DNA from: Methanotrichaceae archaeon | Lineage (GTDB): Archaea; Halobacteriota; Methanosarcinia; Methanotrichales; Methanotrichaceae | Reading direction: 5' to 3' | DNA: 64,000 nucleotides | NCBI GenBank assembly: GCA_963803145.1 | Contig: CAWDLW010000017.1 | Coordinates: forward strand, 160,001 to 224,000 | Shown here: positions 9,403-30,421 of the stretch, piece by piece | How positions within the stretch are numbered: the first letter of the stretch is position 1 | Layout of the letters: each line of letters opens with the position of its first letter | Position numbers and translations under genes: made by a program | Notes under the pieces: model-generated | Database searches by the model: none | Told to the model about the DNA's origin: nothing | The model's input: the letters and a program-made list of their open reading frames with translations, nothing else

Positions 9403-9449
9403 GCAATGGATGGTTAAAAGAGAAATATAGGATGTCAGGAGGGAAATGG

Positions 9450-9608
9450 ATGGAAAATATTGAAGAAAGAAAGGAGACGAGGGAGAGAAGCGAGTACTTT
9501 TGGCATACCTATTATGGCTTTCCCTCTGAAATGCTTGGCTATGCATTGCTAGTAGTAACTATATTATATTTTGCATTTGTGATCTCAGTTGCCGTAGGTA
9601 TATTGTGA
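9450..9608 (+). CDS. Small single-TM protein in the mrp operon
   Basis: GGAGG SD before ATG 9450; MENIEERK... with a C-terminal hydrophobic helix. Confidence 0.55.
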   Translation: MENIEERKETRERSEYFWHTYYGFPSEMLGYALLVVTILYFAFVISVAVGIL

Positions 9609-9663
9609 TAATGATTAAAATGGGGGATCAATCGTAGATATATGATAAGGAGATGACGAAAGA

Positions 9664-9969: not shown

Positions 9970-9974
9970 AGCAG

Positions 9975-11936: not shown

Positions 11937-12038
11937 ATGCATGATTACACGGTTGCCTTCATCCTGATGGCAACTATGACCCTATGGTTATATGTAACCT
12001 ACGTAATCCAGTCTGTGGCCCCATGGCTGCACTTATGA
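11937..12038 (+). CDS. Putative 33-aa single-TM microprotein
   Basis: AGGTGA SD then MHDYTVAFILMATMTLWLYVTYVIQSVAPWLHL*. Confidence 0.45.
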   Translation: MHDYTVAFILMATMTLWLYVTYVIQSVAPWLHL

Positions 12039-12225
12039 AACTCGTTGAATGAATGGCTATGCATGAAAATAGTGCATTCTGAATCTGGCACTACCTGGAG
12101 ATGATCATTTCAACTAAGGGAACATATTGCCCAGACAAGCCTTACACCAATGGATTGAATAAGCGGTTAAAAAATGAGATGAATTGTTATTCATAAGCCA
12201 AAAATTTGATAAAAAGGTGAGACAT

Positions 12226-12345
12226 ATGGACGCGGATGATAGATTGGTGCTTGCAGGTGCATCGATTGGAGTAGCCATGCTAGTTGTTTGGATCGCTTTT
12301 ATCATTATTCTCCTGTTGACCAGAGGACCAGAGGGGTACCATTAA
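12226..12345 (+). CDS. Putative 39-aa single-TM microprotein
   Basis: AGGTGA SD then MDADDRLVLAGASIGVAMLVVWIAFIIILLLTRGPEGYH*. Confidence 0.5.
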   Translation: MDADDRLVLAGASIGVAMLVVWIAFIIILLLTRGPEGYH

Positions 12346-12491
12346 ATTTGGCGTCGGCTTTCTCATGGCTGTCCTGGTTGTAGTCTTGATGGTAACAATC
12401 ATGTCTCTGTTGGTGCGAGGCCGAATGAAGTCTAAAGGTGCAGACCAATCTTAGTGGACCTCAAGTCGATGCTAGAAGTTGGGGAGATGAG

Positions 12492-12641
12492 ATGACCGAC
12501 AAGTACGCGCCTCACGATAAAAGTAAGGCTAGTAAAGAGGCCTTTTATGAGAACCTATTAGTAGCAATTGTTCTCATTTTCAGTTTCATATATTTTTCGT
12601 TTCAACTATATACATGGTTCATCGGTTTCAAAGGTAGTTGA
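12492..12641 (+). CDS. Putative 49-aa single-TM microprotein
   Basis: GGGGAG SD then MTDKYAPHDKSKASKEAFYENLLVAIVLIFSFIYFSFQLYTWFIGFKGS*. Confidence 0.5.
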   Translation: MTDKYAPHDKSKASKEAFYENLLVAIVLIFSFIYFSFQLYTWFIGFKGS

Positions 12642-12690
12642 CTAACGATGCAGATATCTAACGATGGGAGTTACCATCGGGCCCTAGAAA

Positions 12691-12732
12691 AGAGGCCGAA
12701 AAGGCCTCCAACATAGAGGTGACTAAATGCTG
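12691..12732 (+). repeat. 42-nt hairpin+SD+ATG leader, inverted copy at 15766-15807
   Basis: AGAGGCCGAAAAGGCCTCCAACATAGAGGTGACTAAATGCTG vs AGAGGCCGAAAAGGTCTCCAATAGAGAGGTGATGAAATGCTG (37/42 identical). Confidence 0.75.
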
Positions 12733-12785
12733 GTGCTCATATTGGCATATAGATTCTCACCATCGTAAGGTGGATGGTGGAGCCA

Positions 12786-13333
12786 TGAAGGCCAATTCTA
12801 AGAATAACATGCCTGAGGGCATCTATTTTTTGAGTGATGTACTCAATGCGAAGGTTCTCAGCAAGGGCAAAAAGATAGGCAAGCTTTCAGATCTGATCAT
12901 CGTAGATAAAGATAGAGTGGCTGAGGTCACTCATTTGGTGATCGTCCGCCCATTTGGCTATCCATTTCTTATGGTGCCCTGGGAAAAGGTCAGGTCTTTT
13001 GGTGAAAAGGAGATCGTCATCGACGTCGAAGATGTAGAGGAGTTCGCATGTAAAGTTCCAGAGAGTTTTGTGCTGCTGAAGGACTACATCCTTGACAAGA
13101 AGATTCTCGATATGGAGGACACCGAAGTTGAGGTGGTCTATGACATCAAGATGGTGATGAATAATAAGAATAAACTCTATGTCACGGATGTGGATCCGTC
13201 GAGATACGCACGATTAAGACGAACGGGCCTCAACTCCATCGCAAGTATATTTCACAAGGGTCAAGACCAAGATACGAGGAGATTCTTATTCAGAGGTTTT
13301 AAAACGCTCCACGAACGAGAAAGAAGAGTATGA
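12786..13333 (+). pseudogene. N-terminal (PRC-barrel) fragment of an MgtE-intracellular/CBS domain protein
   Basis: YFLSDVLNAKV...KIGKLSDLI...VPWEKV...LLKDYILDKKILDMEDTEVEVVYDI pattern. The resemblance is lost after about 13260 and the ORF ends early. Confidence 0.65.
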
Positions 13334-13574
13334 GGCATGCTGAACAGGGCGTCGGCGGATAAAAACGCCTAGAAAGCAACATCGAGCCGACTCCAGATAG
13401 TGTCGAAGAACTGAAGAATACATGAAAGAGAAGCATGGAATACGACCGTTTTCGACCCAGTGGATATGTTGCCAGATCTGGAGCGATGTAAGATCATGAG
13501 CATTGAGGGTCGGACGGTCATAAACGTGAGATGGTATATAGACGGGGTTTAACTGGCAAAGAATGTGATCGTTT

Positions 13575-14647
13575 ATGGTAATGATAACCGGGATTGATGT
13601 AACAGCGGTAGACGTTGCGTTGTTTGCTATAATCTTAATAGTACTGGCCGCACCGTTTAAAGTGAAGCTAGCTGAAAAGAACCTTGAGGCTTTTCTGTTT
13701 CTAATGGACTCTTAGGAGATACCCAACCTGCAAAGGGAATTCGACCTGCTAAAGCTGGCCTTTGAAGAGCTGATTGTGAAGGATTAGTACCGGCGGTACT
13801 AGTCGCTGGCCTTGCATTCTCCTATGGAAAGGAAGCCAGTTCAAGAGCCTTCATGAATGGCCTGGTTAAATCAGTTCCAATGCCAGGCTGGTCTTCCTGA
13901 TTGTTTTCTATGCAATGATTTCCAGCGTCATAACAGCCATATCAATCCTGTTAGGGAGATAATGAACTTAATGCCGATGAGCGCAAGGATAAGATCAACT
14001 GGTTATAATCCATGCTTCTCTATCGACCTGGGAGCAGTGCTAATCCTTTGGGAGAGCATCTGGTGAAGTGTTATTACGAGGTTGCAGGGGTTGCCCTATC
14101 ATGCAGGCTTCTGGTACCTCTTCGACGAGATGGGTGTACTCATCATCCTAGGCTGCGCCTTATGCGCTGCCTTCGGAGTATTCTAAGTGGACAAGAGGGA
14201 GCCAAAGAGGAAGTCATGGATATCGTTGGTGAAGGCGGCCTAAGGGACGTAATCGCTAGAGCATTCAAAGTTTACATATTGGTTTGTGCGTTGCTCTTAT
14301 TGGGCAGCGGGATGAATACTATTATCGAAAAGTATTTCGTCCACGTCCCGTCTGTGGCGCTGTATTGGTTTAACATAACATCCGCCCTGCTGGATAACGC
14401 GACGCTAGCCTCGGTTGAGATTGGACCTGCTTTGAGCCAGCTCCAGATTAACGCTGCTCTGATGGGACTGCTGATCTTCGGCGGAATGCTGATCCCAGGC
14501 AACATCCCGAACATCATATCTGCAGGTAAGCTAGGCATCACCAGCAGCGAATACGCCAACCTCGGAGTTCCATTTGGCCTCGTTCTGGGCGCGATCTTCT
14601 TCGTGCTGATTTTCGTTCTGAAATTCGCGCCCACTCTAGAAATATAG
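13575..14647 (+). pseudogene. DUF1646 family putative cation transporter, frameshifted pseudogene
   Basis: The 5' end reads VTAVDVALFAIILIVLAAPFKVKLAEKNLEAFLF then stops. The middle has several frameshifts and the 3' end is intact (LDNATL...GGMLIPGNIPNIISAGKLG). Confidence 0.85.
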
Positions 14648-14828
14648 GCACATGAAAAGCGATTGGGATTTTTTATCCCTTTTCTTTCACCGAAGCGCTA
14701 CAATTCGTAGTAACGCCCCTTTACTTTGCTTGAATAACCGTGTTTCTTCCCCATATCGCTACAAAGCAAGTAGGGCGCGTTCTACATAATTGTAGTCTTC
14801 TAATCAGGCTCTGCCGCAAAATATAGGC

Positions 14829-15000
14829 ATGACCGAGAATGTCAAGCTGAAATATGAAAGAGAGCACTTTGGGTGAGGCATTGAATATGTTCTCAAGGTA
14901 CGATTTCAGGGCGCTTCCGGTAGTCGATAATGGTGATAATATGATCGGCGTTGTCAGGTATAGGGATGTCACAAAGCTGACACATCACTTCTTGGAATGA
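14829..15000 (+). pseudogene. C-terminal CBS fragment of the same MgtE-intracellular/CBS gene type
   Basis: MTENV, then a frameshift, then ESTLGEALNMFSRYDFRALPVVDNGDNMIGVVRYRDVTKLTHHFLE*, a CBS motif. Confidence 0.65.
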
Positions 15001-15387
15001 AAGCATGCGAAAAAATTATAAGCCTTGATAAAAGAACTTCTCCATCAATAAAGATGAGCAATTCATGGTGAGACATCGAGTATGCCCATAGATCCACCTA
15101 TTATCACGATAATCACTGGTGGTAGTCTAATTATCATTGCGAATTTGATCTCATATATCAAGCAATGGATCAAGAAGAACGGAGAGAAAAATGGCGAAAC
15201 GATGTTTAATAATCGTGATGACATTGCATTTATAGAACCAGATAGGAGCACATTTGATTATATTATTCAACGTTATAATCACAGTATTCTTTTTAAGACT
15301 TCCGCCCAACTATTTTTTTTATTAATTATGGTGCTATTATTGCACGATTGTCGAGTACTGTAGCATGGATTGCAGAAAAAGAGATTG

Positions 15388-15771
15388 TCAGTGGAAGAGC
15401 AAGCCCAGCAGTTTCAGAGTGGCTATATCAGAGGATGGCAGATCCGCAGTGCTTAAAGCTGCTCCCAAACCTATTGAAAGGCACCCAATTATCAGAAAAC
15501 CCATCCGAGCTCTTCCACCCCCGATGGGTAGAAGTCTCACTGCACTGATAAGCATCACAAGCGGCAATATCGGCGTGAGGATCGATGCAGAGAGCCCTAG
15601 CGTAACCACTATACTTGATAGGACAACCATAAGAAAGGCCCCCTTTAATAAAGAGGCATTTCTATGATCAAACTGGAATATTTGCCGGATGAACGCGCTG
15701 CCTAACGACCCAGCCAACACTACACCAATTAAAGCAATCACACCTAGTTCAAAGGGATTCCCCTGCAGCAT
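15388..15771 (-). pseudogene. Short divergent DUF1646-derived fragment
   Basis: VVTLGLSASILTPILP...LSIGLGAAL aligns with the middle of the DUF1646 paralogs. It has its own SD and BRE-TATA (about 15849-15864). It could be a functional miniprotein. Confidence 0.55.
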
Positions 15772-16071
15772 TTCATCACCTCTCTATTGGAGACCTTTTC
15801 GGCCTCTCTTCTTGTACCATATGTAATTTTAATAACATGTATTCCGAATATTAAATGATTTTGGTAAGGACCTTTAATAAAAAGGAATTTTTCCTTTTTG
15901 GATCCATTCCCTTTTAGGAATTAAGGCATAATGCATTAAAACACTAATGATTAATCATAATATATTGATTCGAGATCTTTTTCATTATTCAACTCCAGAT
16001 TTCTTAAAAGCACAGCTGTTCATCGATTATTCTCCTGAGAAAAAAAGATAAAGCGATGCTTAAAGCATCGC

Positions 16072-17811
16072 TTAGGCACCAAGTCCCAGAGTGGGGGTGA
16101 ACTTCAGCACGAAGATTAGTACGTAGAAAATCGCGCCCAGAACAAGCCCCATTGGAACTCCGAGCTTCGCATACTCTTTGCTGGTAATCCCCAGCTTTCC
16201 TGCTGATATGATGTTGGGGATATTGCCGGGGATCAGCATTCCGCCGAAGATCAGCAGACCCATCAGAGCAGCGGTGATCTGAGCCTGGCTCATTGCCGGT
16301 GAGACCTCGGCCGCAGTCAGAGTGGCGTTGTCCAGAATGGCCGAAACCATGTTGAGCCAATACAGGACAAAATCCGGGATGTGGGTGAAGTACTTGAAGA
16401 TGATGACCTCCATTCCGGCGCCGAGAAGGAACAGAGCGGCTACGAATACGTAAACCTTGGCTGCTCTGACAACGACCTCTCTTAAGCCACCTTCGTCAAT
16501 GATCTCATTGACCTCTGCCTTGCCTGCCCTCTTGCCCACATAAAATGCTCCGAATGCAGCGCATAAGGCACAGCCCAGGATGATGAGTACACCAAGCTGG
16601 TCGAAGAGATACCAGAAGCCTGCGTGATAGGGCATACCCTGCAGTTTGGTTATGGCGATAGTGGACAGAGGCTCACCTAATGGAGTAAGCACTGCTCCAA
16701 GGCCTATGGAGAAGCAGCTGATTATGACAAGGTTGATCTTATCCTTGCGCTCCATTGGCATCAGGTTGACGATCTCAACAAGGAACAGCGATGTGATGAT
16801 GGCTGTGATAACGCTTGAGATCATTCCACAGAGGAATACAATTGCGAAGACCAGCATAGGCATGGGAAATGATTTCACTAGGCCATTCATAACGCCCTTG
16901 AAGGCATTTTTCCCATAGAAGAATACAAGGCCTGCAACCAGTACAGCGGGCACTATGCCCTTCAGAACCGGCTCCTCTGCGGCCAGCTTTACAAGGCCGA
17001 ATTCCCATTTGCTGGTTAGGGTGACTGCTAGGGCACCCATGACAAACAGAAATGCCTCAAGGTTCTTTTCAGCCAGCTTCACCTTGAAAGGTGCAGCCAA
17101 TACTGTTAGGAATATAGCAAACAAGCCTATATCGACAGGGGTTACACCGTAGCCTAAGTCGAGCGGCGCTGTCTGCATCATCGAGATCCTGCTTCCGGCT
17201 GCTGCAGCTATAATAGCCACTGCTAAACTTGCCGCAGCTGATATGAGCATATAGAACCCATTATCATATCTTGCTGAATGGGATCTTAGGTACCTGGTTA
17301 TGCCGACGAAGGATATGCCCCAGATTACCAGCACTGCCAATGCCGTCATGATATTGGCAGTGGTAGCTAGACCCATTTCGGCCGGAGCGGTCTGTACAAT
17401 CAAGAATCTGCTTGCTGTTGCAGCCGCTATTGCCACAGCTAAACTCACAAATATGGAGAATAGCATGTAAAACCCATTGTCGTATTGAGTGGAATGGGAT
17501 TTCATATATCTGGTTATGCCGACGAAGGATATGCCCCAGATTATCACCACTGCGATAGCCGTTATGACGTCGGCGGTTGTTGCCAATCCCATGCCGACAG
17601 GGGTCGTCTGCACCATCAAAAGCTTGCTTGCAGTTGCAACCGCTATTGCCACAGCTAAACTCACAAATATGGAGAATAGCATGTAAAACCCATTGTCTTC
17701 ATGGATCGAATGTGATCTTACGTATTTGTTTACCCCTGCGAAGGATAAACCCCAGGTTATTAGTGTTGCTATTGGGGTTATCATGCTTGTGGTTTCTATC
17801 CCTGCATACAT
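16072..17811 (-). CDS. DUF1646 family putative cation transporter with three N-terminal 72-aa membrane repeats
   Basis: The C-terminal ~360 aa closely match the 372-aa paralogs (EKNLEAFLF, LTPLGEPLSTI, GGMLIPGNIPN). The N-terminus has three WGxSFxG...SHS...DNGFYML repeats. Confidence 0.9.
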   Translation of the reverse strand: MYAGIETTSMITPIATLITWGLSFAGVNKYVRSHSIHEDNGFYMLFSIFVSLAVAIAVATASKLLMVQTTPVGMGLATTADVITAIAVVIIWGISFVGITRYMKSHSTQYDNGFYMLFSIFVSLAVAIAAATASRFLIVQTAPAEMGLATTANIMTALAVLVIWGISFVGITRYLRSHSARYDNGFYMLISAAASLAVAIIAAAAGSRISMMQTAPLDLGYGVTPVDIGLFAIFLTVLAAPFKVKLAEKNLEAFLFVMGALAVTLTSKWEFGLVKLAAEEPVLKGIVPAVLVAGLVFFYGKNAFKGVMNGLVKSFPMPMLVFAIVFLCGMISSVITAIITSLFLVEIVNLMPMERKDKINLVIISCFSIGLGAVLTPLGEPLSTIAITKLQGMPYHAGFWYLFDQLGVLIILGCALCAAFGAFYVGKRAGKAEVNEIIDEGGLREVVVRAAKVYVFVAALFLLGAGMEVIIFKYFTHIPDFVLYWLNMVSAILDNATLTAAEVSPAMSQAQITAALMGLLIFGGMLIPGNIPNIISAGKLGITSKEYAKLGVPMGLVLGAIFYVLIFVLKFTPTLGLGA

Positions 17812-17859
17812 TTTCGTTCACCTTCAAATTTTAATCGCTATTTCTGCTGCTATCTCTCC

Positions 17860-18627
17860 TTAGAAATTGGCTCCAAACGCCACCCCAACAAGGAGAATGG
17901 CCCCTACAAACATGCACGCCTTTGCACTCCACATTGCTATATTTTTAACTCCGTTTTTAAGTCCGTCTCTGCCTTCCGTGGCCTGTATCTCCATAGCAGT
18001 CACCTTCTCCTCAATGAAGAAAACGCTGATCAAACCGAGCGCCAGTATACATAGTATTACATACAGGCTTTGCAGTTCCAATGGCAAGACATTTATCGAA
18101 GGGAGAGATCCCTGCATTTTCGTTATGGCTATTGTAGAGTACGGCGTCTCTACCAGAGCCAGAACTGCTCCCAGGCATATGGATAAGCTTGCCATTATCG
18201 TAAGTTTTGCCCGTGTCCTGCGCTTAAGAGGCAGATGGTTCACCACCTCCACTAGCAAGAAGAACGGTAGTATAGGTGTGATGATGATTGCAGAAAGTCC
18301 AAGCACGACTACAATCTCCAAGAATATTACTTTCAGAGTGATTTCATCCAGGAGAGCGTCATTTATGCCGCGCAAAAAGTGTGGGCCTAGGTAGTGTGCT
18401 GTCAGTCCAGCCACCAACACAGATAGCACGATACCGACTATGATCGGTTCCTGGATTGCCTCCTCCACGAGACCTATGTGCCAGGATCTGGATATAGCAA
18501 CAGCGCATATGCCCATCAGAAATAAGAAAGTTTCAATGTTTTGTTCAATCCTTTTAACCAAGAGCGGACCTAAAAGTATGGCCACAAATATTGGAATCAA
18601 TCCTAATTCAACTGGGGCAAGCGCCAT
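17860..18627 (-). CDS. Divergent half-length DUF1646-like membrane protein
   Basis: IEQNIETFLFLMG and EEAIQEP match the DUF1646 N-half; the LDNATL/GGMLIPGNIPN C-terminal part is absent. GGTGA SD and BRE-TATA upstream. Confidence 0.8.
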   Translation of the reverse strand: MALAPVELGLIPIFVAILLGPLLVKRIEQNIETFLFLMGICAVAISRSWHIGLVEEAIQEPIIVGIVLSVLVAGLTAHYLGPHFLRGINDALLDEITLKVIFLEIVVVLGLSAIIITPILPFFLLVEVVNHLPLKRRTRAKLTIMASLSICLGAVLALVETPYSTIAITKMQGSLPSINVLPLELQSLYVILCILALGLISVFFIEEKVTAMEIQATEGRDGLKNGVKNIAMWSAKACMFVGAILLVGVAFGANF

Positions 18628-19204
18628 CTTGAGATCACCACATGAGATACGTCTTCGCCTTTGATTTAAATCAAAATTGGTGTTAATTCATATTAAAGCT
18701 TTTTGATATCCAAAACGGAAAAATATATTAATTATCGATCATGACGGTCATCTATTGTAGGATGACATATGATCCAACTTCAGAAAGCGAACGACGGGCT
18801 TTTCCTTCGACTGATGATTTTAATTTGGACTTATCATAAATTTATTATTAGTGCCAAATCCCTATTAAAGGTTTTCGTATCCACAAAAGAGGTTATATAT
18901 TAATTATTAACCATATAGTTTTTTCTTTTAGCCAGAAAGGATCGTAGTCCCGGACAATTCTGGTTTTACACCAATCATAATGATACAAATGGGATCAAAT
19001 GTTTACTTCATCAATGATTCATTAAGAAATCAAATTTAAATTATTTTATCTTATTTATTAAAACATTTCTTTTTATCATATAACTGCTCGCGATGGCCAT
19101 GATGTCTTGCTTCCATATCCGTTCTGGTTTTTCCATTGCTTGGATACGCCTACTCCAACAATTCGGCCAGGCTAATGCTATCGGAGTTAAGCTCAAAATG
19201 GAGA

Positions 19205-19633
19205 TTATGAGAAATGTTGAGATTGGATACCAATTATGGTTAGATTTAGTATATAAATGCCCCAACAGAATGATAGAAGGCCGATGAATATTAAGCTGAG
19301 CCCTGTGGGATTATGGAATATCATTGTTTCCCGGATGCCATTTATTGAGCCGATTAATCCGCTAAATGCCATTAGCATACCCATGATGCCCGCGGATAAT
19401 CTACAGAGTCTTGCGATCCATTCATTTCCTATAAATTGTCTGGTGGCAGGATCGACTAAGCTTAGCACATATATTCCTCCAAACGATGTGAAAATGCCAG
19501 CCGTGATAACAGTAAGGTCTCCCTTGCCGATGACTAATGCCATCGTCCCCCCAATTATCACCAACAGCCATCCAGTGGCAACAGTCGCGGTTCTTCTCGG
19601 CTTCATTAGTGCTCTCTCATTTAACATTACCAT
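19205..19633 (-). CDS. Hypothetical 4-TM membrane protein
   Basis: Four hydrophobic segments; no family recognised. Confidence 0.5.
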   Translation of the reverse strand: MVMLNERALMKPRRTATVATGWLLVIIGGTMALVIGKGDLTVITAGIFTSFGGIYVLSLVDPATRQFIGNEWIARLCRLSAGIMGMLMAFSGLIGSINGIRETMIFHNPTGLSLIFIGLLSFCWGIYILNLTIIGIQSQHFS

Positions 19634-20533
19634 CGATGATTAAATATTCCATTATCGAGAGGCCCATCCGAGGCCGCCAGCCAATCCACAAAGCTGATCC
19701 ACAAAGAACTGCAATGAGGCTCAAAGGCACAAAGGACTCACAATTTGGGTGCCTTCATAGCATAAAAGCATCTACGATTGCGGCTCCTTGAGTGAACTTT
19801 CTGTTGAGTTCTGATTGGCTATCTCCTATCCAATTCAGAACCACCAGAAATACTCTAGATACCGCCGACAAATTCTCATGGTGGAATGAGTTCAGCCATG
19901 CTTACAGGAGCTAAGGCAGACCAGACACTGATGGGAACATTACGGTAGCTAGAACAGCCAGGCACAACGTTCCAAGCAAAAAGGCTATTGCAAGCGTTTT
20001 ATCGCTCATTTCGACCTCCTTTTCTCATCGATTTACCATTTATTTCAATGAACAATTTAGTATTTATGCTTTTCTTGAAAGGTATGAAACAGAGAACAAA
20101 TATTTGGAAATATAATTATGTGCCTTAAAATTAATATTAACGATAAAAAAGACATTTAAGCGCATTTGACGCCAATTTTAAGTAACAGTGGCCAAGAAGA
20201 TTAATATGATGTTTTCTCAATAATTCATGATATTAGATATCCAAAATGGATAATAGCTCTCAAAGTATTTAAACTTCTAATCATGTGTCCAAAGAAAAAA
20301 ACACCAAGATGTATTCAATAACAAACCTAATTGAACTTATTGATTAAATTGCTAGCTATTTCTGAAAATTAATCGTTAAATGGGGAATCTTAAATTGATT
20401 AGGTATAAAGCAGGATTTATTTCAAATAACCAAAAATCCTTATGATTGTTATAATATGCGTAATTGGTTCGCCATGTTTACGAATATATGTTAAAAAAAG
20501 GGGCGGTCCTTTTGATGATCCTGGTTAAAGCCT

Positions 20534-21394
20534 TCAGCCAGCCCTAACCACTAGAACCGGCCTGTCAGCCATCCTAGCCACATCATATGTTGTGCTCCCC
20601 ACAGTCAACTGCTCGAGCCATCCTTTTCCATGAGAGCTCATCGCGATCAAGGATACATCCTCTTTATTTGCAAGGTTGCTTATCTCCTGGGCTGGGTTAC
20701 CTATGCTGGCATAAACCTTTGCCTTCAGGCTGTCTCTCTCAAGCTCCTCCTTGATGGCATTTAGCTTTTCAATTGCGTCCTCTCTATGGGCGTCTATATC
20801 ATTCCAAGTCTCTCCCCGGAAAACCACATGCTGCAGCACTATTTCCCCAATACCCTCGATCCCCTTTACGAAGCCGAGCGTCTCTGCCGCAGGCTCTGAA
20901 AAATCAGTCGGACAGAGCACCTTAGAGAAGGGTTGAGAGCAAACCATGTCCAGAGTCGGTCCTTCGCGATCATCCAGCATCTTATAGCGCATGAGCAGGA
21001 GGTTTGTATTCCCATAGCGCAAGACATCTTTAGCGACATTTCCAAGGAGGATGCCTTCGACGAGCCCCTTCCCGCGTGCCCCCATTGCAATCAGGGAAAC
21101 TTTTTCTTCATCGGCAATCTTCTGTACCATGCGTGGGATCGCGCCCTCCATGATGGTCTCCGTTTTCGTCTTGACATTGAGATCGCTGCCCTCCAGGAAC
21201 TTCTTCTGCTCGGCCAGCTTGACTTTGGCCTCTTCGATCCGTCCACCTGGGTCCCATACCCTGGCGAGAGGGTCCGCCGGGCCGATGATGTGTAGGAGTA
21301 CAACATCTTTGACGCCAGGAAGCGCTTTTATACACTCAATAACCTTCTGCGAATGCTTTGAGAAGTCTGTAGGCACAAGAACCTTTTCAAACAT
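20534..21394 (-). CDS. Universal stress protein (tandem USP domains)
   Basis: MFEKVLVPTDFS...IAMGARGKG...LLGNVA, with a second domain FSKVLCPTDFS...MSSHGKG...GSTT. Confidence 0.92.
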   Translation of the reverse strand: MFEKVLVPTDFSKHSQKVIECIKALPGVKDVVLLHIIGPADPLARVWDPGGRIEEAKVKLAEQKKFLEGSDLNVKTKTETIMEGAIPRMVQKIADEEKVSLIAMGARGKGLVEGILLGNVAKDVLRYGNTNLLLMRYKMLDDREGPTLDMVCSQPFSKVLCPTDFSEPAAETLGFVKGIEGIGEIVLQHVVFRGETWNDIDAHREDAIEKLNAIKEELERDSLKAKVYASIGNPAQEISNLANKEDVSLIAMSSHGKGWLEQLTVGSTTYDVARMADRPVLVVRAG

Positions 21395-21470
21395 AAATAG
21401 CTCACCGATTGTAATCATAATTCATCACATTTCAATTTATCTACGATGATTAGAGTTGCAAAGGATACAC

Positions 21471-21584
21471 GAACATGCTCAATAACCGGAGGGGATTTGA
21501 GTTACTGATCAGGATGAATCGCTATCATGCTAAGTGGCATATCTTCCAAGAGCAGGATTTTACCACCACCTATTGAGCATGTTC
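21471..21584. mobile_element. Probable MITE (114 bp)
   Basis: 14-bp perfect terminal IR GAACATGCTCAATA/TATTGAGCATGTTC, flanked by an 8-bp near-duplication GGATACAC/GGATATAC. Confidence 0.6.
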
Positions 21585-21776
21585 GGATATACTTTAAATT
21601 CATTCTCTAATTTAGGAAGTTAAAGTGCGGAATGTGGGTTCAAACCGATTTATGGCGCAATCGTCTCAAAATCTAGCGTCAATTTTTTTAGCATATAATG
21701 AATATGATCCGTATTTTATAGGGCTCTTCGCGAGTTGGCCTCAAGGAATGTCGAATGCCAAATTTTAAAGTGTGAT

Positions 21777-23132
21777 CTAGAGGAACCCGACGGCGCCATG
21801 ATTATCACGCGTGAGGAATTTTATCAGATCGCCAGAAGTGATGAATCCCCAGAGCACTCCTTTATCCACAACTACGAGCTGGTTTGCGTTCGTCTTATTT
21901 AATATCTTTATCGCGTTAATTATAAACTCATCCGAGTTAATGGTCATGAAACCATAGGTTACGATATCCTCTACTTTCAAATCGGTTCTACCTTCTGCTA
22001 CCACTCTAGCTACATCTAACATGTTTATAAGACCAGGTGGTCTGGTTTCAACGATGGCCTCACGAACACCATTATTGATCAATATCTTGGATGCCTCCTG
22101 AAGAGAGGCATCGGCTCTGATGCGGACTGCACGCCGAGCAATCTTGCCAACTGAGATTCTGGGAATCGAGATAATCTCTTCCACATCTAGGATAAGTCTG
22201 TTTAGTATGTAGTCTTGTCCCATTAACTTGCCACGAATGTATAGGTTGTTAAAAGTAATGGGCCCAACCTCGATCTCATCCCCTATGTCGAAGTTTCTGA
22301 TATTGCCGATTATGCGAATAAGTCCATTGCGTTGCTGGTAGGGGCGCATGACATTATTAAAGATTATTTCGTTTGCATTTACGCCCTCAACTGCTACACC
22401 ATTTCTGATAACAGGTACGGCTATTTCGCTTCCGTCTCCGTTGTGGTCTAAGCCTAAGGTCTCGAATGCTGCATCCGTGGCCTTATAGCCACCCCTGGGA
22501 CCAGTGACGCTTTCTACTAGACATAAGACCTTCAGAGATTGCATTTGGTTCCTTATTGTTCCAGGGTGTCGGTTTATCAACTCTGCGATCTCCTTGCTCT
22601 TGGTAGCCAGGCTCCCTTGGCGGTGAAGGTTGATCAAAGTGGTTAATGTTTCCCTCTGACCTGGTGTTAATTCTATTTTGACCCCCAGACTAAGTAATCC
22701 GATAGCAGCTATGCCAATTATTGTATATGGGTAAGGAATCGCAAAGAAGTTCGTGGTAAATGGCGACCCCCCAAATCTCATAGATGTTATTGGGGAGATA
22801 GGCGAATCAACAATAGTCATTGCTCCCAAGGCTGTAGAGAGACCTCCCATCATCACAAATTTTGTCATTGCCCTGCGATCGAAGAAAATGAGGAGTGCGA
22901 TCGCACCGAGCATTAAGAACGAAAGTATCGGTGTGATTAAAATAGCTAATAGCCCTAGCATGACTACAGCCACGGTTAATACTACATTAGGCGGATTTTT
23001 TTGCAACACAGAGGCCAATTTGCTATCGAACCATAACTCTCTGCGACGGACTAATGCTTTTAATAAAGGCATAGCTAGTGCTATAGCTACCACAGCATTC
23101 GAATACAACTTTGATAGATATTGCCGTAGCAT
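21777..23132 (-). CDS. Membrane-anchored HTH-CBS transcriptional regulator (COG2524-like) with a DUF1646-derived N-terminal domain
   Basis: ELTPGQRETLTTLINL...IAELINRHPGTIRNQMQSLKVLCLVESVTGPRGGY winged HTH and a C-terminal CBS pair. The N-terminal 150 aa are hydrophobic and align with 17860-18627. Confidence 0.85.
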   Translation of the reverse strand: MLRQYLSKLYSNAVVAIALAMPLLKALVRRRELWFDSKLASVLQKNPPNVVLTVAVVMLGLLAILITPILSFLMLGAIALLIFFDRRAMTKFVMMGGLSTALGAMTIVDSPISPITSMRFGGSPFTTNFFAIPYPYTIIGIAAIGLLSLGVKIELTPGQRETLTTLINLHRQGSLATKSKEIAELINRHPGTIRNQMQSLKVLCLVESVTGPRGGYKATDAAFETLGLDHNGDGSEIAVPVIRNGVAVEGVNANEIIFNNVMRPYQQRNGLIRIIGNIRNFDIGDEIEVGPITFNNLYIRGKLMGQDYILNRLILDVEEIISIPRISVGKIARRAVRIRADASLQEASKILINNGVREAIVETRPPGLINMLDVARVVAEGRTDLKVEDIVTYGFMTINSDEFIINAIKILNKTNANQLVVVDKGVLWGFITSGDLIKFLTRDNHGAVGFL

Positions 23133-23393
23133 GAATAATCTCCCTTAGAAAGACAACTTCTGCTTATGATTTCTCAGGTTGTTTGCCCCATAATATTCGA
23201 CATGGTTCGTAACCGGATTCTTAATATATCTGATATAGGAACAAATAGGTGTATTTACAATATTTAATGATTTTGGTTAATGAGGATATTTTGTATAACT
23301 CTGAACCCTGGGGGAAGCAAGAATATATGATGCAGGAATAGCGTAATAATAGAAGTCAACGGCAAATTAGGTCTTAAGAAACATGGAAAAGAG

Positions 23394-23579
23394 CTAACTT
23401 ACCTTCTCGATGAACCGATGCTTTGTCTTCCTTCCATAGACAACTATTTCTTCCTCTTCGCCCAGGTCCAACTGGTTATGTCCTTTTATCAGCGAATAAT
23501 ATGTTACCACGATGGTCAACAGGGCTATCCCTATAGCCACCAGCACATTTAATAAAGTAGGTATATAGATGGGTGCCAT
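23394..23579 (-). CDS. Small single-TM protein
   Basis: GTGA SD, TATA-like element upstream, one TM helix followed by an acidic/basic tail. Confidence 0.5.
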   Translation of the reverse strand: MAPIYIPTLLNVLVAIGIALLTIVVTYYSLIKGHNQLDLGEEEEIVVYGRKTKHRFIEKVS

Positions 23580-23780
23580 TTTATATCACTATGTTATAGA
23601 TTACATGGCGGATAATGTAAATAGTTTTGGATACCTGTAACTTTTTTCTTGCATTGCAGTGTTGGATAAGTCCACAAAATCAGCAAGCTTAAGGCCGTTT
23701 ATGTTAGTATTGGATACCACCCACAATTGATATCACGAGGCGAAATTTCGAACAGTTATCCAACACAGCAGGATGACCTT

Positions 23781-24391
23781 ACCATAAAGAATTTCCCCTA
23801 ACGATCGACAATACTATTTGTATGCCGGATATCGCAGTCATAAGCGATCGCAATTTCCTGTTTGAAAAGCTCTTCCAGGATCTGGGAGTAAGCTACCAGT
23901 TCCTTCAGCCTAGCATCCTCGGAAGCCCCTTTTTGCCTCAGTACAAGATGGTTCTGATACCGACGGGCTTTGCCCATCCACAGTACTCCAAGGCGCTCCC
24001 TGCTCTGCAGAGGACCAGGTCAAATATCTCTGAGTTTGTGCGAAAAGGCGGAGTTCTAACAGTCTTCGGGCCGATGGTGGAACATAATTATGAGTGGCTG
24101 CCGCTTAAGCTGAAGTATGTCTGCGAGTACGGCTCACATACTGTAGAGCCATCGGATGATGAGTGCTCCTGCCTGCTTTGCACCTTAACGCCGGAGTGCG
24201 ACGGCTACCTTGTTCCTGGCGAGGGTTTCGACACCGTTCTAAAGAATTCAAAGGATAGAGCCATTATTGTTGCAGGGAAGTACGGCGAGGGCATGATCGT
24301 AGCCACATCGGTTCATGAGTTTCCGGCCGGAGACTACATAAAATGGGCGCTTGGAAAGGCTAAGCCAGCCAGGATCTGAAATGGCTGAGGA
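23781..24391 (+). repeat. Direct repeat copy 2 (611 bp), homologous to 763-1373
   Basis: Same start and end sequences as copy 1. Confidence 0.95.
23822..24379 (+). CDS. Conserved hypothetical protein, copy 2
   Basis: 175/185 aa identical to 804-1361. Confidence 0.75.
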   Translation: MPDIAVISDRNFLFEKLFQDLGVSYQFLQPSILGSPFLPQYKMVLIPTGFAHPQYSKALPALQRTRSNISEFVRKGGVLTVFGPMVEHNYEWLPLKLKYVCEYGSHTVEPSDDECSCLLCTLTPECDGYLVPGEGFDTVLKNSKDRAIIVAGKYGEGMIVATSVHEFPAGDYIKWALGKAKPARI

Positions 24392-24608
24392 TGCCATCGT
24401 AAAGCGGAGCAAGAACCGGCAGGAGATCGAGGACCTTCTGAAACAGAAGGGATATGTGATTGAGAAGATCTCCGTCCTGAACATGGACTCGGGCGAGATC
24501 CATTATTTTGAGAGCTATCCTGATGCTATTGAGTTCCTGAAGGGCAGGAAGGGAAGGTGGTATATCACCACGCCGGGCATCAGGCGATCAAATATCGAGA
24601 AACGTTAA
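24381..24608 (+). CDS. Small hypothetical protein
   Basis: ATG 1 nt after the upstream stop (MAEDAIVKRS...). Only its first 11 nt are present after repeat copy 1. Confidence 0.65.
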   Translation: MAEDAIVKRSKNRQEIEDLLKQKGYVIEKISVLNMDSGEIHYFESYPDAIEFLKGRKGRWYITTPGIRRSNIEKR

Positions 24609-24730
24609 TCAATGCACCAATATATACAATCAACGATTATAATGCAGATTGATATTATGATCATAATATTAGTATGGCAGCTATTTTGGTTCCTAAAAAA
24701 GAGAATGAAAAGCGGTGCTTTCGCACCACT

Positions 24731-25849
24731 TTAGGCTATTCCCAGTCTCGGGGTAAAGTGCAGAATGTATATCAGCACGAAGAAGAATGCGCCCAGAACA
24801 ATACCGAATGGAACTCCGAGCTTGGCGTATTCGCTGCTGGTGATGCCCAGCTTTCCTGCGGATATGATGTTGGGGATGTTTCCGGGGATCAGCATTCCGC
24901 CGAAGATGAGAAGACCCATCAATGCGGCATTGATTTGATCCTGAGCCATGGCTGGAGATAGCTCGGCTGAGGTCAGGGTTGCGTTATCCAGGATGGCCGA
25001 GAGCATGTTCACCCAGTACAGAACCATGGACGGTATGTGGGTGAAGTACTTATCGATGAGAACGTTCATTCCGTCGCCGAGCAGGAACAGGGCTGCTACG
25101 AATACGTAAACCTTGACAGCTCTGACGATGACCTCTCTGAGGCCTCCCTCATCGGTAATCTCCTTGACCTCTGCCTTGCCGGCCTTGCCAACGTAGAATG
25201 CTGCGAAGGCGGAGACTATGGCACAGCCCAATATGATCAGTACGCCTAGCTGGTCGAATAGGTACCAGAAGGTTGCATAATATGGTGCACCCTGCAGCTT
25301 CGTAATGGCGATTGTTGACAGAGGCTCACCCAGGGGAGTGAGAACTGCTCCAAGACCGATGGAGAAACAGGCGAGGATGACCAGATTGATCTTGTTAATG
25401 CGCTCCATTGGCAGCAGGTTAACAATCTCTACAAGGAACAGCGATGTGATGATGGCTGTGATAACGCTTGAGATCATTCCACAGATAAAGACAATCAAGA
25501 AGACCAGCGCAGGCATTGGAACCGATTTTACCAGGCCGTTCATGACGCCCTTAAAGGCGCCCTTTCCATAGAAGAATATGAGGCCTGCAATGAGCACTGC
25601 TGGGACTATGCCTTTTAATATTGGCTCTGATGCAGCCAGTACGATCAGGTCCATACGCCAGCCGTGAACTCCGGAATTCGTGACGACGCCCGTGGTTACG
25701 GTGACGGCTAATGCGCCCATAACAAACAGGAATGCCTCAAGGTTCTTTTCAGCTAACTTCACCTTGAAAGGTGCAGCCAATACTATCAAGAATATAGCAA
25801 ATAAACCTATATCAACTGCGGTTACTACTTGGCCCGCAATCTCTACCAT
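24731..25849 (-). CDS. DUF1646 family putative cation transporter
   Basis: EKNLEAFLFVMG, LTPLGEPLSTIAI, LDNATL and GGMLIPGNIPNIISAGKL motifs; GAGGTGA SD. Confidence 0.92.
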   Translation of the reverse strand: MVEIAGQVVTAVDIGLFAIFLIVLAAPFKVKLAEKNLEAFLFVMGALAVTVTTGVVTNSGVHGWRMDLIVLAASEPILKGIVPAVLIAGLIFFYGKGAFKGVMNGLVKSVPMPALVFLIVFICGMISSVITAIITSLFLVEIVNLLPMERINKINLVILACFSIGLGAVLTPLGEPLSTIAITKLQGAPYYATFWYLFDQLGVLIILGCAIVSAFAAFYVGKAGKAEVKEITDEGGLREVIVRAVKVYVFVAALFLLGDGMNVLIDKYFTHIPSMVLYWVNMLSAILDNATLTSAELSPAMAQDQINAALMGLLIFGGMLIPGNIPNIISAGKLGITSSEYAKLGVPFGIVLGAFFFVLIYILHFTPRLGIA

Positions 25850-26000
25850 GATATCACCTCTTTTCTTATCCCTCCAACATTCGCCTATTTTACCTTTTTG
25901 GCATAAAGAGTAAAAGGTTAAATAGTAATAAAGGAAAAAGAGGAAAATGTAAAATTAGTATACGTTCAACCACTCGAATAAATGGAGGTTAAAGAAAGAA

Positions 26001-26145
26001 GGTAGTCTACCTGTGCTGGGTTGATGAATATAGAGATTATAGCAGAAGACCACCTGCCTGACATCCTGACATCGACCTGGAGAAATCCAATCGAGATTCG
26101 AGGGAGACCACCTGGGATAGACTAACTTGATTTTGTTAGACTACC
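26001..26145. mobile_element. MITE (145 bp), IS1-family-like ends
   Basis: Terminal IR GGTAGTCTA/TAGACTACC with a perfect 9-bp flanking direct repeat AAGAAAGAA (25992-26000, 26146-26154). Confidence 0.75.
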
Positions 26146-26220
26146 AAGAAAGAACAACAAAGAAAAAGAAAGTTCTTAAAATCTGAAAAATAGAATGAAA
26201 AGCGATGCTTTTGCACCGCT

Positions 26221-27339
26221 TTAGGCTATTCCCAGTTTCGGGGTAAAGTGCAGGATGTAGATCAGCACGAAGTAGAATGCGCCCAAGACGAGACCGAATG
26301 GGACTCCAAGCTTGGCGTACTCGCTGCTTGTGATGCCTAATTTTCCTGCGGATATGATGTTCGGGATGTTGCCGGGGATCAGCATTCCGCCGAAGATGAG
26401 CAGACCCATCAATGCAGCATTGATCTGATCCTGGCCCATGGCTGGAGATAGCTCTGCTGCAGTCAGGGTGGCGTTATCCAGAATTGCCGAGACCATGTTC
26501 ACCCAGTACAGAACCATTGAGGGGATATGGGTGAAGTACTTGTCGATGAGAACGTTCATTCCGTCGCCGAGCAGGAACAGGGCTGCTACGAATACGTAAA
26601 CCTTGACAGCTCTGACGACGACCTCTCTGAGGCCTCCCTCATCGGTAATCTCCTTGACCTCTGCTTTGCCGGCCTTGCCGACATAGAATGCAGCGAAGGC
26701 GGCGACTATGGCACAGCCTAGGACGATCAGTACGCCTAGCTGGTCGAAGAGGTACCAGAAGGTTGCATAATATGGCGCACCCTGCAGCTTCGTAATGGCG
26801 ATTGTTGACAGAGGCTCACCCAGGGGAGTGAGAACTGCTCCAAGGCCGATTGAGAAACAAGCGAGAATGACCAGGTTGATCTTATTCATGCGCTCCATCG
26901 GCATCAGGTTGACGATCTCAACAAGGAACAGCGATGTGATGATGGCTGTGATAACGCTTGAGATCATTCCACAGATAAAGACAATTCCAAAGACCAGCGC
27001 AGGCATTGGAACCGATTTTACCAGGCCGTTCATGACGCCCTTAAAGGCGCCCTTTCCATAGAAGAATATGAGGCCTGCAATGAGCACTGCTGGAACTATG
27101 CCTTTTAATATTGGCTCTGATGCAGCCAGTACGATTAGGTCCATACGCCAGCCGTGAATCCCAGAGCTCGAGACAATACCGGTGGTTATAGTGACGGCTA
27201 CTGCGCCCATAACGAACAGAAATGCCTCAAGGTTCTTCTCAACTATCTTCACCTTGAAAGGTGCTGCACATATTATAACGAATATCAATGCTAAACCAAT
27301 ATCTACTGCGGTAACTACTTGGCCCGCAATTTCTACCAT
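26221..27339 (-). CDS. DUF1646 family putative cation transporter (tandem paralog)
   Basis: Same length (372 aa) and nearly the same sequence as 24731-25849, including ~30 nt of shared 3' flank. Confidence 0.92.
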   Translation of the reverse strand: MVEIAGQVVTAVDIGLALIFVIICAAPFKVKIVEKNLEAFLFVMGAVAVTITTGIVSSSGIHGWRMDLIVLAASEPILKGIVPAVLIAGLIFFYGKGAFKGVMNGLVKSVPMPALVFGIVFICGMISSVITAIITSLFLVEIVNLMPMERMNKINLVILACFSIGLGAVLTPLGEPLSTIAITKLQGAPYYATFWYLFDQLGVLIVLGCAIVAAFAAFYVGKAGKAEVKEITDEGGLREVVVRAVKVYVFVAALFLLGDGMNVLIDKYFTHIPSMVLYWVNMVSAILDNATLTAAELSPAMGQDQINAALMGLLIFGGMLIPGNIPNIISAGKLGITSSEYAKLGVPFGLVLGAFYFVLIYILHFTPKLGIA

Positions 27340-27669
27340 AAGACCACCTCTTTTCTTAGTCCTACATCCTTCAGCTCTCCCCTCCGGAGAGTTTGTAGAC
27401 GGATAATTCTTCCTTTATTAAATGCTTTTGGTTTCTGTTTAAAACGCTAGGAGAGAATTAATAGTAGCACAAACAGCCAAAACAATATGTTCTCTAAGCA
27501 GGAGGGGTAACAAATGGCTTAAATGGAAAACTGACAAAGATTTAAAGGTATAATTCTAAACGGTATGTAATATTGTCGTAAAAAATTGAAATTACGTTGC
27601 TATTAAACTTATATCAATCTAATAACAGTAATCTGTCTTTAAATTCAAAATAAAATGAGAAAAAGCGTC

Positions 27670-28551
27670 CTAACGCGAAATAGCCCCGCCTGGACGGAGG
27701 ATCAGAACCGGCCTGTTCGATGAGTTTGCCACATCATAAGCAGTGCTTCCTATCCTGCCGGTTTTTAGAGATGCCGCGCCCTGGGCGCTCATAGCTATAA
27801 GAGATACATCCAGCTCATCGGCCGCACGGCGTATCTCCTCTATGGCGTTGCCTACGACAACCTTGGGCGTCACAGTCATATTGCCCTGCTTCCAGGCTGA
27901 TGCGATCTCGTTCAGCTTTTCTGTTGTACTTGTTGTCGTCGTATCTATCTCGCCCTTTGTCTCTCCTCGGGATACAACATAAAGCAAGATTATCTCACCA
28001 ATTCCGGGAATGCTCTTGATGAGAGAGGTTGCGGCTTCAGAGGGCTCAGAGAGGTCTGTAGGAACAAGAACCTTTGAGAATATACGTGCACAGTACTTCT
28101 CCAGAGATCCCTTCTCCATATCGCCCAATAGTTTGTATCGCATTATCAGGAGATTCCGATCACCGAGCTGAAGAACACCCCTTGATGAACTTCCAAGAAT
28201 ATCACTGCCAATGAGGCTCCTTCCACGAGCGCCCATTATAACAAGATCCACGTTCTCCTCGTCGGCTATCTTGTTGATCGCACTCCCCACTACATCGCCA
28301 GCGCCGCCAACGGCGAACGTAGATCGTGTTTTAATGGCGACATTCGGAAGCTTGATACGCTTTGCCTCTTCTGCAAGCTTTCTCTCATCATCCCTTACCT
28401 CAGCCACAGGGTCCCAAAACCTCATTATAGGACCTCTAGCTACGACGTGCAACAACATAATTTCTTTCAATCCAGGGATCTCGCCGACACAATCCAAGAC
28501 TTTTTGAGAATATCTTGAGAAGTCGACAGGGACTAAAACCTTTTCAAACAT
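27670..28551 (-). CDS. Universal stress protein (tandem USP domains)
   Basis: MFEKVLVPVDFS, MGARGRS...LGSSS, and a second USP domain. Confidence 0.92.
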   Translation of the reverse strand: MFEKVLVPVDFSRYSQKVLDCVGEIPGLKEIMLLHVVARGPIMRFWDPVAEVRDDERKLAEEAKRIKLPNVAIKTRSTFAVGGAGDVVGSAINKIADEENVDLVIMGARGRSLIGSDILGSSSRGVLQLGDRNLLIMRYKLLGDMEKGSLEKYCARIFSKVLVPTDLSEPSEAATSLIKSIPGIGEIILLYVVSRGETKGEIDTTTTSTTEKLNEIASAWKQGNMTVTPKVVVGNAIEEIRRAADELDVSLIAMSAQGAASLKTGRIGSTAYDVANSSNRPVLILRPGGAISR

Positions 28552-29257
28552 TCTACAGTCACCTAGTTATCATCAATTTCGAATTCTTAATATTTCAATT
28601 TAACTATGGAAGTTGTGAAACATATAACAAAAATAGAAGGTATTAATAATTATATATAAATTTTAGCTTTTCTGCACGTCGCTTTCGGTTATACATCTAC
28701 CTAAAGCCCTCAAGCCGGAAGGTCTCTGCGCGAAAATTCTTATCACAATACAAGCCAATCCCAACTACGAACGCGCTAAATGCCAATCTCCTTAGCAAAG
28801 CCGCGATCGAACTGTGAAGATTAGAAAAACACGGCTATATGAACTTTCAGTTGGCTGGCGGTTCAGGAATAAGCCCGGGTCTCCAAGTATAATGCCTGGA
28901 TAATAAGCGAAGGGGGAAATGATCACGATGAAGAGGAGGATAACTGCTTTATTCAATAGTCAATTATCGCTTCGGGATCAACCTATACTAATTAAGGTAA
29001 ATAGTTTTTCTTGCATATAGGTCGCTTGAAGGATGATGGATGACCCAACAGAATTACAGGATATTAGGCAAGATATACCCTTGTCTTATATCGCGCACCA
29101 TAGCCTTAATGCCAAGCAGTCTGGAACTAATCCTGACAATGTGCGCAGATGTGTCTAGGCGTTGATAGTTTTGTTCGGAAGCTTTATGTAACTATAAAAA
29201 TTTGTATTAAGTCAATCTCCCGAGAGAAGGAAGTCCCGAGAGAAAGAGGTGAAAAAA

Positions 29258-30163: not shown

Positions 30164-30181
30164 AAGCACGAGGTTCATAGG

Positions 30182-30199
30182 GGCCTGCTTAAGCAGGCC
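30182..30199 (+). terminator. Palindromic hairpin downstream of mtrE
   Basis: GGCCTGCTTAAGCAGGCC perfect palindrome 18 nt after the stop codon. Confidence 0.4.
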
Positions 30200-30421
30200 T
30201 ACTAAAATTTTAGCAGGTTTGCGCAGCTTTAAAGCATCCCTATTTATAGTGTAGGATAATTATTCTCATAATGACGATTCAAACGAGGATAATTACATCA
30301 ATTGAAGATTATAATTGCATCCTTTATTTACACATGTTAGGAACGATAAATTAGATTGCGAAACCCCCAAGGTTAATAAAAGATATGTATCATAATCGGA
30401 GTATCAGGTGCCGGAAAGAGT

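Follow-up and report, generated by a model that had tools for sequence, protein, structure and literature searches.

Why would an archaeal genome hold all of its copies of one putative transporter family in a single cluster, and why would three of these copies cover only part of the domain? These questions are raised by a stretch of 64,000 nt from a Methanotrichaceae archaeon (assembly GCA_963803145.1, contig CAWDLW010000017.1, positions 160,001 to 224,000; hereafter the window), in which a whole-genome Pfam scan placed all eight DUF1646 (PF07854) matches of the 4.13-Mb genome, between positions 13617 and 27294 of the window. The matches represent seven elements: three full domains (in proteins of 372, 372 and 579 amino acids (aa)), one frameshifted pseudogene and three divergent truncated copies. 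Because all eight matches sit in one 14-kb stretch, the clustering is not a matter of chance. Five proteins of the window are labelled by their length in aa (W255, W127, W451, W579 and W142), and the truncated copies are W255, the free-standing mini copy W127 and the N-terminal domain (N-domain) of W451. As described below, these truncated copies are not decay products; they are intact genes under purifying selection. The best explanation as a whole, to which we assign a probability of about 0.5, is that they provide a non-transporting partner (the 255-aa protein) and a membrane anchor or sensor (the mini copies) in a transporter module.

According to White et al. (2022; PMC9337991), the DUF1646 family is of unknown function, with some members predicted to be Na+/H+ antiporters, and the RNA named after bacterial DUF1646 genes is the Na+-sensing Na+-I riboswitch. 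Among the titles listed by a full-text literature search for 'DUF1646', work on this riboswitch RNA dominated and none was on truncated paralogs, and searches on Methanothrix/Mrp/USP and on HrcA/CBS/archaea yielded nothing on the proteins considered here. NCBIfam holds a family for none of the DUF1646 copies. The nearest named relatives of the window proteins are from Methanothrix and other Methanotrichaceae, and the public names are merely 'DUF1646 family protein', 'predicted cation transporter' and 'CBS domain-containing protein', the last leaving the membrane domain of the fused form unmentioned.

Truncated copies as intact genes under purifying selection

A first-pass annotation of this stretch had listed seven DUF1646-related sequences at 13575-27339, and every one of them carries a PF07854 match above the gathering score of 21.4 bits, with scores ranging from 362 down to 23.9 bits (Table 1). 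The full-length domain with both TPxGEP and GGMLIPGNIPN is found in W579 and in the two 372-aa canonical copies, which are 93% identical to each other, but not in W255, W127, the W451 N-domain or the pseudogene. An alignment of the window copies reproduced the canonical motifs LTPLGEP and GGMLIPGNIPN as that annotation had quoted them, and also its account of the divergent copies, which read LALVETP, LSTADLP or MTIVDSP, have LGLxAxxxTPIL in common and end before the C-terminal motif. The label 'half-size' given to these copies was correct as regards truncation but not as regards a single size, as W255 covers approximately two thirds of the domain and W127 and the W451 N-domain approximately one third each. 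The copy taken for a pseudogene is indeed one: tblastn with a canonical copy revealed several frame changes and stops in its N-terminal two thirds, and its C-terminal part is an intact open reading frame (ORF) whose final ~140 aa match the profile.

A quick IQ-TREE phylogeny (LG+G4, 111 shared columns, 75 rows chosen from ~220 proteins and ORFs, with a bacterial DUF1646 outgroup) recovered the half-size and mini copies as a single clade (SH-aLRT 97) that excludes the canonical, 349-aa and N-extended copies, so that the earlier division into a canonical and a divergent class is phylogenetically real. Within this clade, the mini copies form a clade of their own (99), divided into the free W127 type (87) and a regulator-linked type, either fused or split (99).

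Pairwise ratios of nonsynonymous to synonymous substitution rates (dN/dS), calculated by the Nei-Gojobori method with our own script, were 0.16-0.30 for W255, 0.26-0.40 for W127, 0.39-0.47 for the W451 N-domain and 0.31-0.38 for the C-terminal part of W451, with 0.10-0.18 for the canonical copies and mrp. Fisher tests on non-synonymous versus synonymous differences gave p <=0.001 in all nine pairs. When 105 Methanotrichaceae genomes were searched with W255 as the query (E <=1e-55), all 12 matches of the W255 class lay in open frames of 252-275 aa. Among proteins, 75 W255-like clusters were found at 49-100% identity, with lengths of 154-286 aa but mostly 246-256 aa, and full-size proteins entered these matches only at <=45% identity. 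In addition, 127-aa members of the W127 cluster are present in three further assemblies. Simple decay had been expected to leave dN/dS near 1 and no conservation; the ratios of 0.16-0.47 and the lengths and gene order kept across genera are at odds with it.

The truncated classes also possess conserved residues of their own. In the W255 class, T117 is present in 49 of 52 sequences and P118 in 51 of 52, in the region of the canonical S128/T131/A132, and the canonical TPxGEP is replaced by A-L-V-E-G/T-P. The minis share a class-specific conserved hairpin motif, VLGLxAxxITPILP.

Table 1. Positions of the DUF1646 elements and neighbouring features in the window
Feature	Positions	Strand	Details
W579, full DUF1646 domain, 579 aa	16072-17811	-	residues 230-569 = profile 4-347, E 5e-106
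Canonical DUF1646, 372 aa	24731-25849	-	Pfam full domain, E 2e-106
Canonical DUF1646, 372 aa, copy used for structure model	26221-27339	-	Pfam full domain, E 5e-108
W255, 255 aa	17860-18627	-	profile 4-245, E 8e-36
W127, free-standing mini copy, 127 aa	15388-15771	-	profile 71-172, E 9e-10
W451, 451 aa	21777-23132	-	residues 23-148 = profile 77-198, E 3e-5, 23.9 bits
DUF1646 pseudogene	13575-14647	+	tblastn; intact ORF 14012-14647 with profile 205-347 only, E 1e-50
W255 upstream region	18628-18730	-	alignment of 7 orthologous loci
W142, small membrane protein, 142 aa	19205-19633	-	
mrp-type multisubunit cation/proton antiporter genes	2681-11696	+	
PRC-barrel remnant of PRC-MgtE_N-CBS gene, N-terminal	12719-13333	+	
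Tandem universal-stress-protein gene	20534-21418	-	
Second tandem universal-stress-protein gene	27670-28551	-	
Lone full-length MtrE paralog	29249-30163		Pfam E 2.5e-122; no other mtr genes beside it
Na_H_Exchanger gene	36289-37398		

Fold of the canonical copy and segments kept in the truncated copies

One of the two 372-aa copies was modelled with AlphaFold2 from a 36-row alignment (pLDDT 77.9, pTM 0.78). The model matched ArsB (10tp_A) with Z 25.5 and a root-mean-square deviation of 4.1 over 335 of its 372 residues, NaS1 with Z 24.2 and VcINDY with Z 22.9; Pho90 and TRAP-M chains also matched, SiaQM chains did so at Z 12.9-19.1, and a Foldseek match reached E 3e-4. Judged from this model, the canonical DUF1646 copy has the elevator fold of the ion-transporter superfamily (ArsB/DASS type), which bears out the superfamily assignment of the first-pass annotation. 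A sequence profile search of canonical DUF1646 against PDB sequences gave no match at E <=10.

The helix pattern of the model fits two inverted repeats, each composed of a hairpin and a discontinuous helix, but hhalign found no similarity between the N-terminal and C-terminal halves of DUF1646 (repeat probability only 0.6%). According to the helix list of the model and the positive-inside rule, the chain would begin with two N-terminal helices, an amphipathic helix, a long helix (81-109) and a cytoplasmic hairpin (112-145) with S128/T131 at its tip, continue through a discontinuous helix (150-184) broken at TPLGEP, a helix at 196-220 and a Lys-rich cytoplasmic loop, and end with a mirror set containing LDNAT and GGMLIPGNIPN. 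S128, T131, A132 and TPxGEP are invariant in all 36 canonical sequences. LTPLGEP and GGMLIPGNIPN had been read as re-entrant hairpin ion sites; they would still lie at the expected ion or substrate site, but they more likely occupy the breaks of the discontinuous helices, with the S128/T131 and LDNAT segments forming the hairpin tips.

For W255, alignment to the canonical model suggests that the first hairpin and the first discontinuous helix are both retained, together with the N-terminal helices before them and a single helix beyond the central loop; the second hairpin and the GNIPN segment appear to be absent. The minis would retain no more than the same hairpin and discontinuous helix, preceded by a single long helix, with one further helix in the regulator-linked form. 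As the second hairpin and the GNIPN segment are missing, and the minis are smaller still, the truncated copies are predicted to be unable to form a complete transport domain alone.

Gene order, operon structure and the fused regulator

Gene order was compared with 14 window proteins as blastp queries, first against every ORF of >=80 aa in 11 fetched loci and then in 12 more. A recurring order was found, in which the W255 gene, with the small membrane protein W142 upstream of it at several loci, is followed by an N-extended DUF1646 gene (577-713 aa) and then by a mini copy. Of the 12 W255-class genes, ten are followed on the same strand, within 165 nt, by an N-extended DUF1646 gene; of the remaining two, one is 1.25 kb away (a second copy, in genome G058) and one is on a contig without a matched extended gene (G113:C199). 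Directly downstream of the extended transporter, a fused regulator is found in six loci (G113, G058, G088, G094, G077:C50 and G109), and a free mini copy takes this position in the window and in G005, G014 and G077:C121. W142, which looks like a four-helix membrane protein by sequence, is conserved (54-68% identity) in G005, G003, G058 and G077, in each case upstream of the W255 ortholog. It has no family in Pfam or NCBIfam, and the ESM Atlas gave weak leads only (0.90-0.91, with recognition below the usual mark).

In the window, W255 lies 48 nt upstream of W579, the spacer between them contains a Shine-Dalgarno sequence and no terminator, and a hairpin with a T-run follows the W579 stop codon. 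This tight operon link with the extended transporter points to a partner-subunit role for W255. Upstream of the W255 orthologs, a TATA-like block GCTTTAATATG (near 18690 in the window) and a ribosome-binding site GGTGGTGAT are conserved in all seven aligned loci, the former being mostly identical among them. A 31-nt motif of the W255 promoter region (18692-18722) recurs with 77% identity at 20223-20253, within the 900-nt stretch between a universal-stress-protein (USP) gene and W142 (19634-20533), which has no ORF of >=60 aa on the gene strand.

W579 consists of a DUF1646 domain (16072-17124) and an N-extension (17125-17811) of three tandem repeats of ~72 aa, each with two membrane helices and an invariant W..SF...DNGF pattern, and two of these units are 216-nt tandem copies at 80% identity. 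The homologs of the N-extended protein vary in repeat number (about 438, 504-512, 577, 650 and 713 aa), and a 354-aa protein (P0114) matches the repeat region without a DUF1646 domain. For the N-extension, Pfam gave only sub-threshold chance matches and the ESM Atlas no usable relative. The DUF1646 domain of W579 groups in the tree with the two 372-aa genes (SH-aLRT 99) and not with other N-extended genes, and its region (16037-17154) shares 300-nt blocks at 71-89% identity with theirs (24693-25834 and 26183-27324). Together, the grouping and the shared blocks suggest gene conversion or domain swapping in the lineage of this genome.

Beyond what the first-pass annotation had described, W451 is a fusion protein, in which the mini DUF1646 membrane domain (~22680-23132) is followed by an HrcA-type winged helix-turn-helix (wHTH) domain (22443-22673), a beta-rich middle part and two CBS domains. 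Pfam assigned HrcA_DNA-bdg (PF03444) to residues 154-230 with E 5e-28 and PF00571 to two stretches with E 1e-11, and the CBS pair was confidently modelled. By its domain order, W451 is an HrcA-type wHTH and CBS-pair regulator, for which DNA binding is predicted. Its residues 153-441 share 51-62% identity with a soluble protein of ~290 aa; the soluble wHTH-CBS regulator is present in all 105 family genomes, and the full-length fused form in nine. The fusion junction is exact and contains no linker: soluble regulators begin with M(D/E)LTPVQRD, and fused ones read ...AIGILSLGLKIELTPVQRD. In G005, a 174-aa mini and a 292-aa regulator are encoded as separate adjacent genes, followed by a fused 441-aa copy (L026, G005:C76, 4173-7048). 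When 1.84 billion representatives were searched with the W451 N-domain, just 15 clusters were returned, namely one fused form, one of 248 aa and otherwise free minis of 82-168 aa.

The link of the mini copies with the wHTH-CBS regulator, whether fused or split, points to a membrane anchor or sensor role. Because the regulator-linked mini would end exactly where the cytoplasmic loop begins, the wHTH is expected on the cytoplasmic side. An accessory or regulatory role had been proposed for the divergent class; the mini-wHTH-CBS fusion and the split pair in G005 give it real support. Upstream of W127 (15838-15865, minus strand) and W451 (23250-23277, minus strand), a 28-nt TATA-containing motif is shared at 86% identity, and W127 also has a leader hairpin and a strong Shine-Dalgarno (ribosome-binding) site. 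The aligned upstream regions of five DUF1646-type genes revealed no common operator beyond this W127/W451 motif, and the two soluble wHTH-CBS paralogs encoded elsewhere in this genome (contigs C34 and C42) have unrelated neighbours that gave no clue to a regulon.

Across the family, the W255 class was found in 10 of the 105 genomes, representing 4 of 16 genera, and the N-extension class in 12, namely the same 10 together with G085 (70% complete) and G094 (78% complete). The genome to which the window belongs is flagged with 6.77% contamination.

The first-pass annotation had grouped the cluster with mrp, USP and mtrE genes as parts of one Na+ system. Here, as in four other loci, the module is immediately adjacent to the last mrp gene (573 aa), and tandem-USP genes stand beside the module in three other loci. 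These two linkages thus recur. For mtrE, the loci retrieved from other genomes showed no MtrE match beside the module. A second MtrE match of this genome is located on contig C16. A 25-nt motif is shared by the upstream regions of the two tandem-USP genes (21419-21443 and 28582-28606, 84% identity), and upstream of the first lies a 25-nt inverted repeat (21460-21595), 88% complementary and with arms 86 nt apart, which may be an operator. The PRC-MgtE_N-CBS gene of the window is broken, with the DUF1646 pseudogene between its pieces (residues 1-161 at ~12785-13270, residues 173-195 and 378-424 at ~14805-14997), and an intact 424-aa version is found in G005 (L025:1993-3267). The broken region is flanked by a 58-nt inverted repeat (12675-12732 and 15766-15823, 81% complementary) that takes in the W127 leader and start codon; this repeat around the pseudogene region suggests a rearrangement scar.

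Competing explanations and meaning for the DUF1646 family

According to the reading we favour, the three divergent sequences are cut-down paralogs, all of one lineage, of a putative Na+ transporter of the elevator type with the ArsB/DASS fold. They belong to an accessory module of the Methanotrichaceae, made up of its own promoter, the 255-aa gene, the 579-aa N-extended transporter and a mini copy (either free, 127 aa, or fused, 451 aa). W255 would be co-translated with W579 and would join it as a non-transporting protomer or subunit. The mini domain would anchor the regulator at the membrane, with the wHTH in the cytoplasm, and may report ion or transporter status, while the CBS pair would add a nucleotide or ionic-strength input and the regulator would control promoters of the cluster. 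The substrate of the transporter would be Na+, a specificity suggested by the context (mrp and Na_H_Exchanger genes nearby) and by the link of the bacterial genes to the Na+-I riboswitch.

Several observations weigh against this reading. Constraint on the truncated copies is relaxed, as their dN/dS is 2-4 times as high as in the canonical ones; in addition, free mini ORFs can be as short as 98 aa or as long as 147 aa. The truncated copies do not retain the canonical acidic residue E175 at its position, and ion binding by them is therefore doubtful: in the W255 class an acidic residue is found one position earlier in 40 of 52 sequences and in place in 18 of 52, and most fused minis have Gly-Leu or Gly-Ser at this site. 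The tree was built on just 111 columns and has long branches. The description of the minis as one structural repeat derives solely from the helix pattern and the positive-inside rule, with no internal sequence repeat detectable in DUF1646. The AlphaFold2 model of W451 (25-row alignment) has a mean pLDDT of 59.8, with the membrane and wHTH parts mostly <50, and the direct attachment of the wHTH to the last membrane helix, without a linker, may restrict DNA binding. Finally, the module is present in only 10-12 of the 105 genomes and was not found in the two genomes of the same genus (G001 and G002, 97-99% complete); it is therefore dispensable, and its occurrence in three other genera points to either loss or lateral transfer.

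A possible alternative, though a doubtful one, is that the truncated proteins have independent roles, with the mini being a mere membrane anchor for the wHTH-CBS regulator and W255 having another membrane role of its own. It is consistent with the altered ion-site residues of the truncated copies and with the 4 kb that separate W451 from W579 in the window, and a complex prediction for W579 with W255 (score 0.00, partner fold uncertain) supports neither side. However, the transporter gene that W255-class genes tightly and repeatedly adjoin is the N-extended one (10 of 12), and in no case the plain 372-aa type, a mini copy follows the extended transporter wherever the context is visible, and a plain anchor needs no class-specific hairpin motif such as VLGLxAxxITPILP.

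Somewhat unlikely in our view is a full archaeal trigger-transporter circuit, made wholly of shortened versions of the transporter. In such a circuit the hairpin piece would be a signalling module that docks on full-size DUF1646 or keeps a residual cation site, the fused wHTH-CBS part would read the transporter state and set Na+-homeostasis transcription, and W255 would form with the N-extended transporter an obligate asymmetric dimer of one live and one dead protomer.

W255 might instead be dominant-negative, entering inactive mixed dimers with full-size DUF1646 protomers and lowering transport when induced. In DASS-type proteins such as VcINDY the N-terminal helices form a dimerising scaffold, which the N-terminal helices kept by W255 in the alignment to the model would match, and W255 is encoded in the same operon as the transporter. 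Nevertheless, fixed co-transcription from one promoter leaves little independent dosage control, and the protomers of elevator dimers usually act independently, so that a dead partner need not inhibit; we therefore consider this explanation improbable.

A split transporter, in which the truncated proteins are first halves that pair up, or join a separately made second half, to give a working transport unit, is very unlikely. Elevator transporters are made of inverted repeats, the pseudogene retains an intact second-half ORF, and the W255 class and the free minis still have an acidic residue close to the position of the canonical Glu. Yet the whole-genome scan revealed no second-half-only gene besides the pseudogene, none was seen in the syntenic loci of other genomes, where short C-terminal pieces lie at contig ends or in a fragmented copy, and the neighbouring 579-aa protein already has a complete domain.

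That the truncated copies are functionless, decaying fragments of duplicated DUF1646 genes is hardly credible: the true pseudogene in the same cluster, the elevated dN/dS, the variable mini lengths and a Pfam match of W255 that reaches profile position 277 if stop codons are read through are outweighed by the selection and length data, the near-invariant residues of the W255 class, the conserved promoter and ribosome-binding site, a gene order kept across four genera and an in-frame regulator fusion retained in nine genomes.

The preferred reading, of a partner subunit and a membrane-bound sensor, has partial parallels in known systems. TRAP transporters (HiSiaQM, 7qe5; fused QM) likewise combine an elevator protein of the ion-transporter superfamily with a small membrane subunit or an N-terminal helical extension, and their Q subunit is a scaffold extension. 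In contrast, the small partner here would be a truncated paralog of the transporter rather than an unrelated Q protein; W255, W127 and W142 gave no Q-family (DctQ) Pfam match at E <=0.01, and no periplasmic binding protein is evident in the window cluster. The resemblance to the TRAP small subunit would accordingly be functional only and not one of family membership. ToxR and CadC are membrane-bound one-component transcription regulators, and W451 resembles them, and systems with transporter-coupled trigger regulation, in that a winged helix is covalently joined to a membrane domain and encoded beside candidate target transporter genes. It differs from them in that its predicted wHTH is HrcA-type and follows the last membrane helix without a linker, the membrane part would be a cut-down transporter repeat, and it also carries a CBS pair. 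The C-terminal part of W451 has the same Pfam domains as the soluble archaeal HrcA-type wHTH-CBS regulators, and the protein adds to these a DUF1646-derived membrane domain of ~150 aa. Within the DUF1646 family, the seven elements are members by the Pfam cut-off and the canonical copy by its modelled elevator fold, but in three of them coverage of the domain is 30-70%, the second conserved segment is absent, and TPxGEP and S128/A132 have given way to other residues.

Methanothrix species are the main acetate-consuming methanogens in digesters and wetlands, living near the energetic limit, where Na+/H+ bookkeeping matters. The sole functional clue to the DUF1646 family so far has been the bacterial Na+-I riboswitch. 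Bacterial DUF1646 genes are under the control of this riboswitch (PMC9337991), whereas Rfam gave no match of any kind at E <=1, the Na+-I riboswitch included, on either strand of the window cluster (12000-30500). What is new here is that truncated transporter paralogs are kept as genes, one of them serving as the membrane domain of a predicted transcription factor. If the preferred reading is true, these genes would provide a natural example of truncated transporter paralogs retained as subunits, and the fused form would be a membrane-tethered archaeal transcription factor with a transporter fragment as its sensor part. Such a system would be an archaeal, protein-based counterpart to the riboswitch control of bacterial DUF1646 genes.

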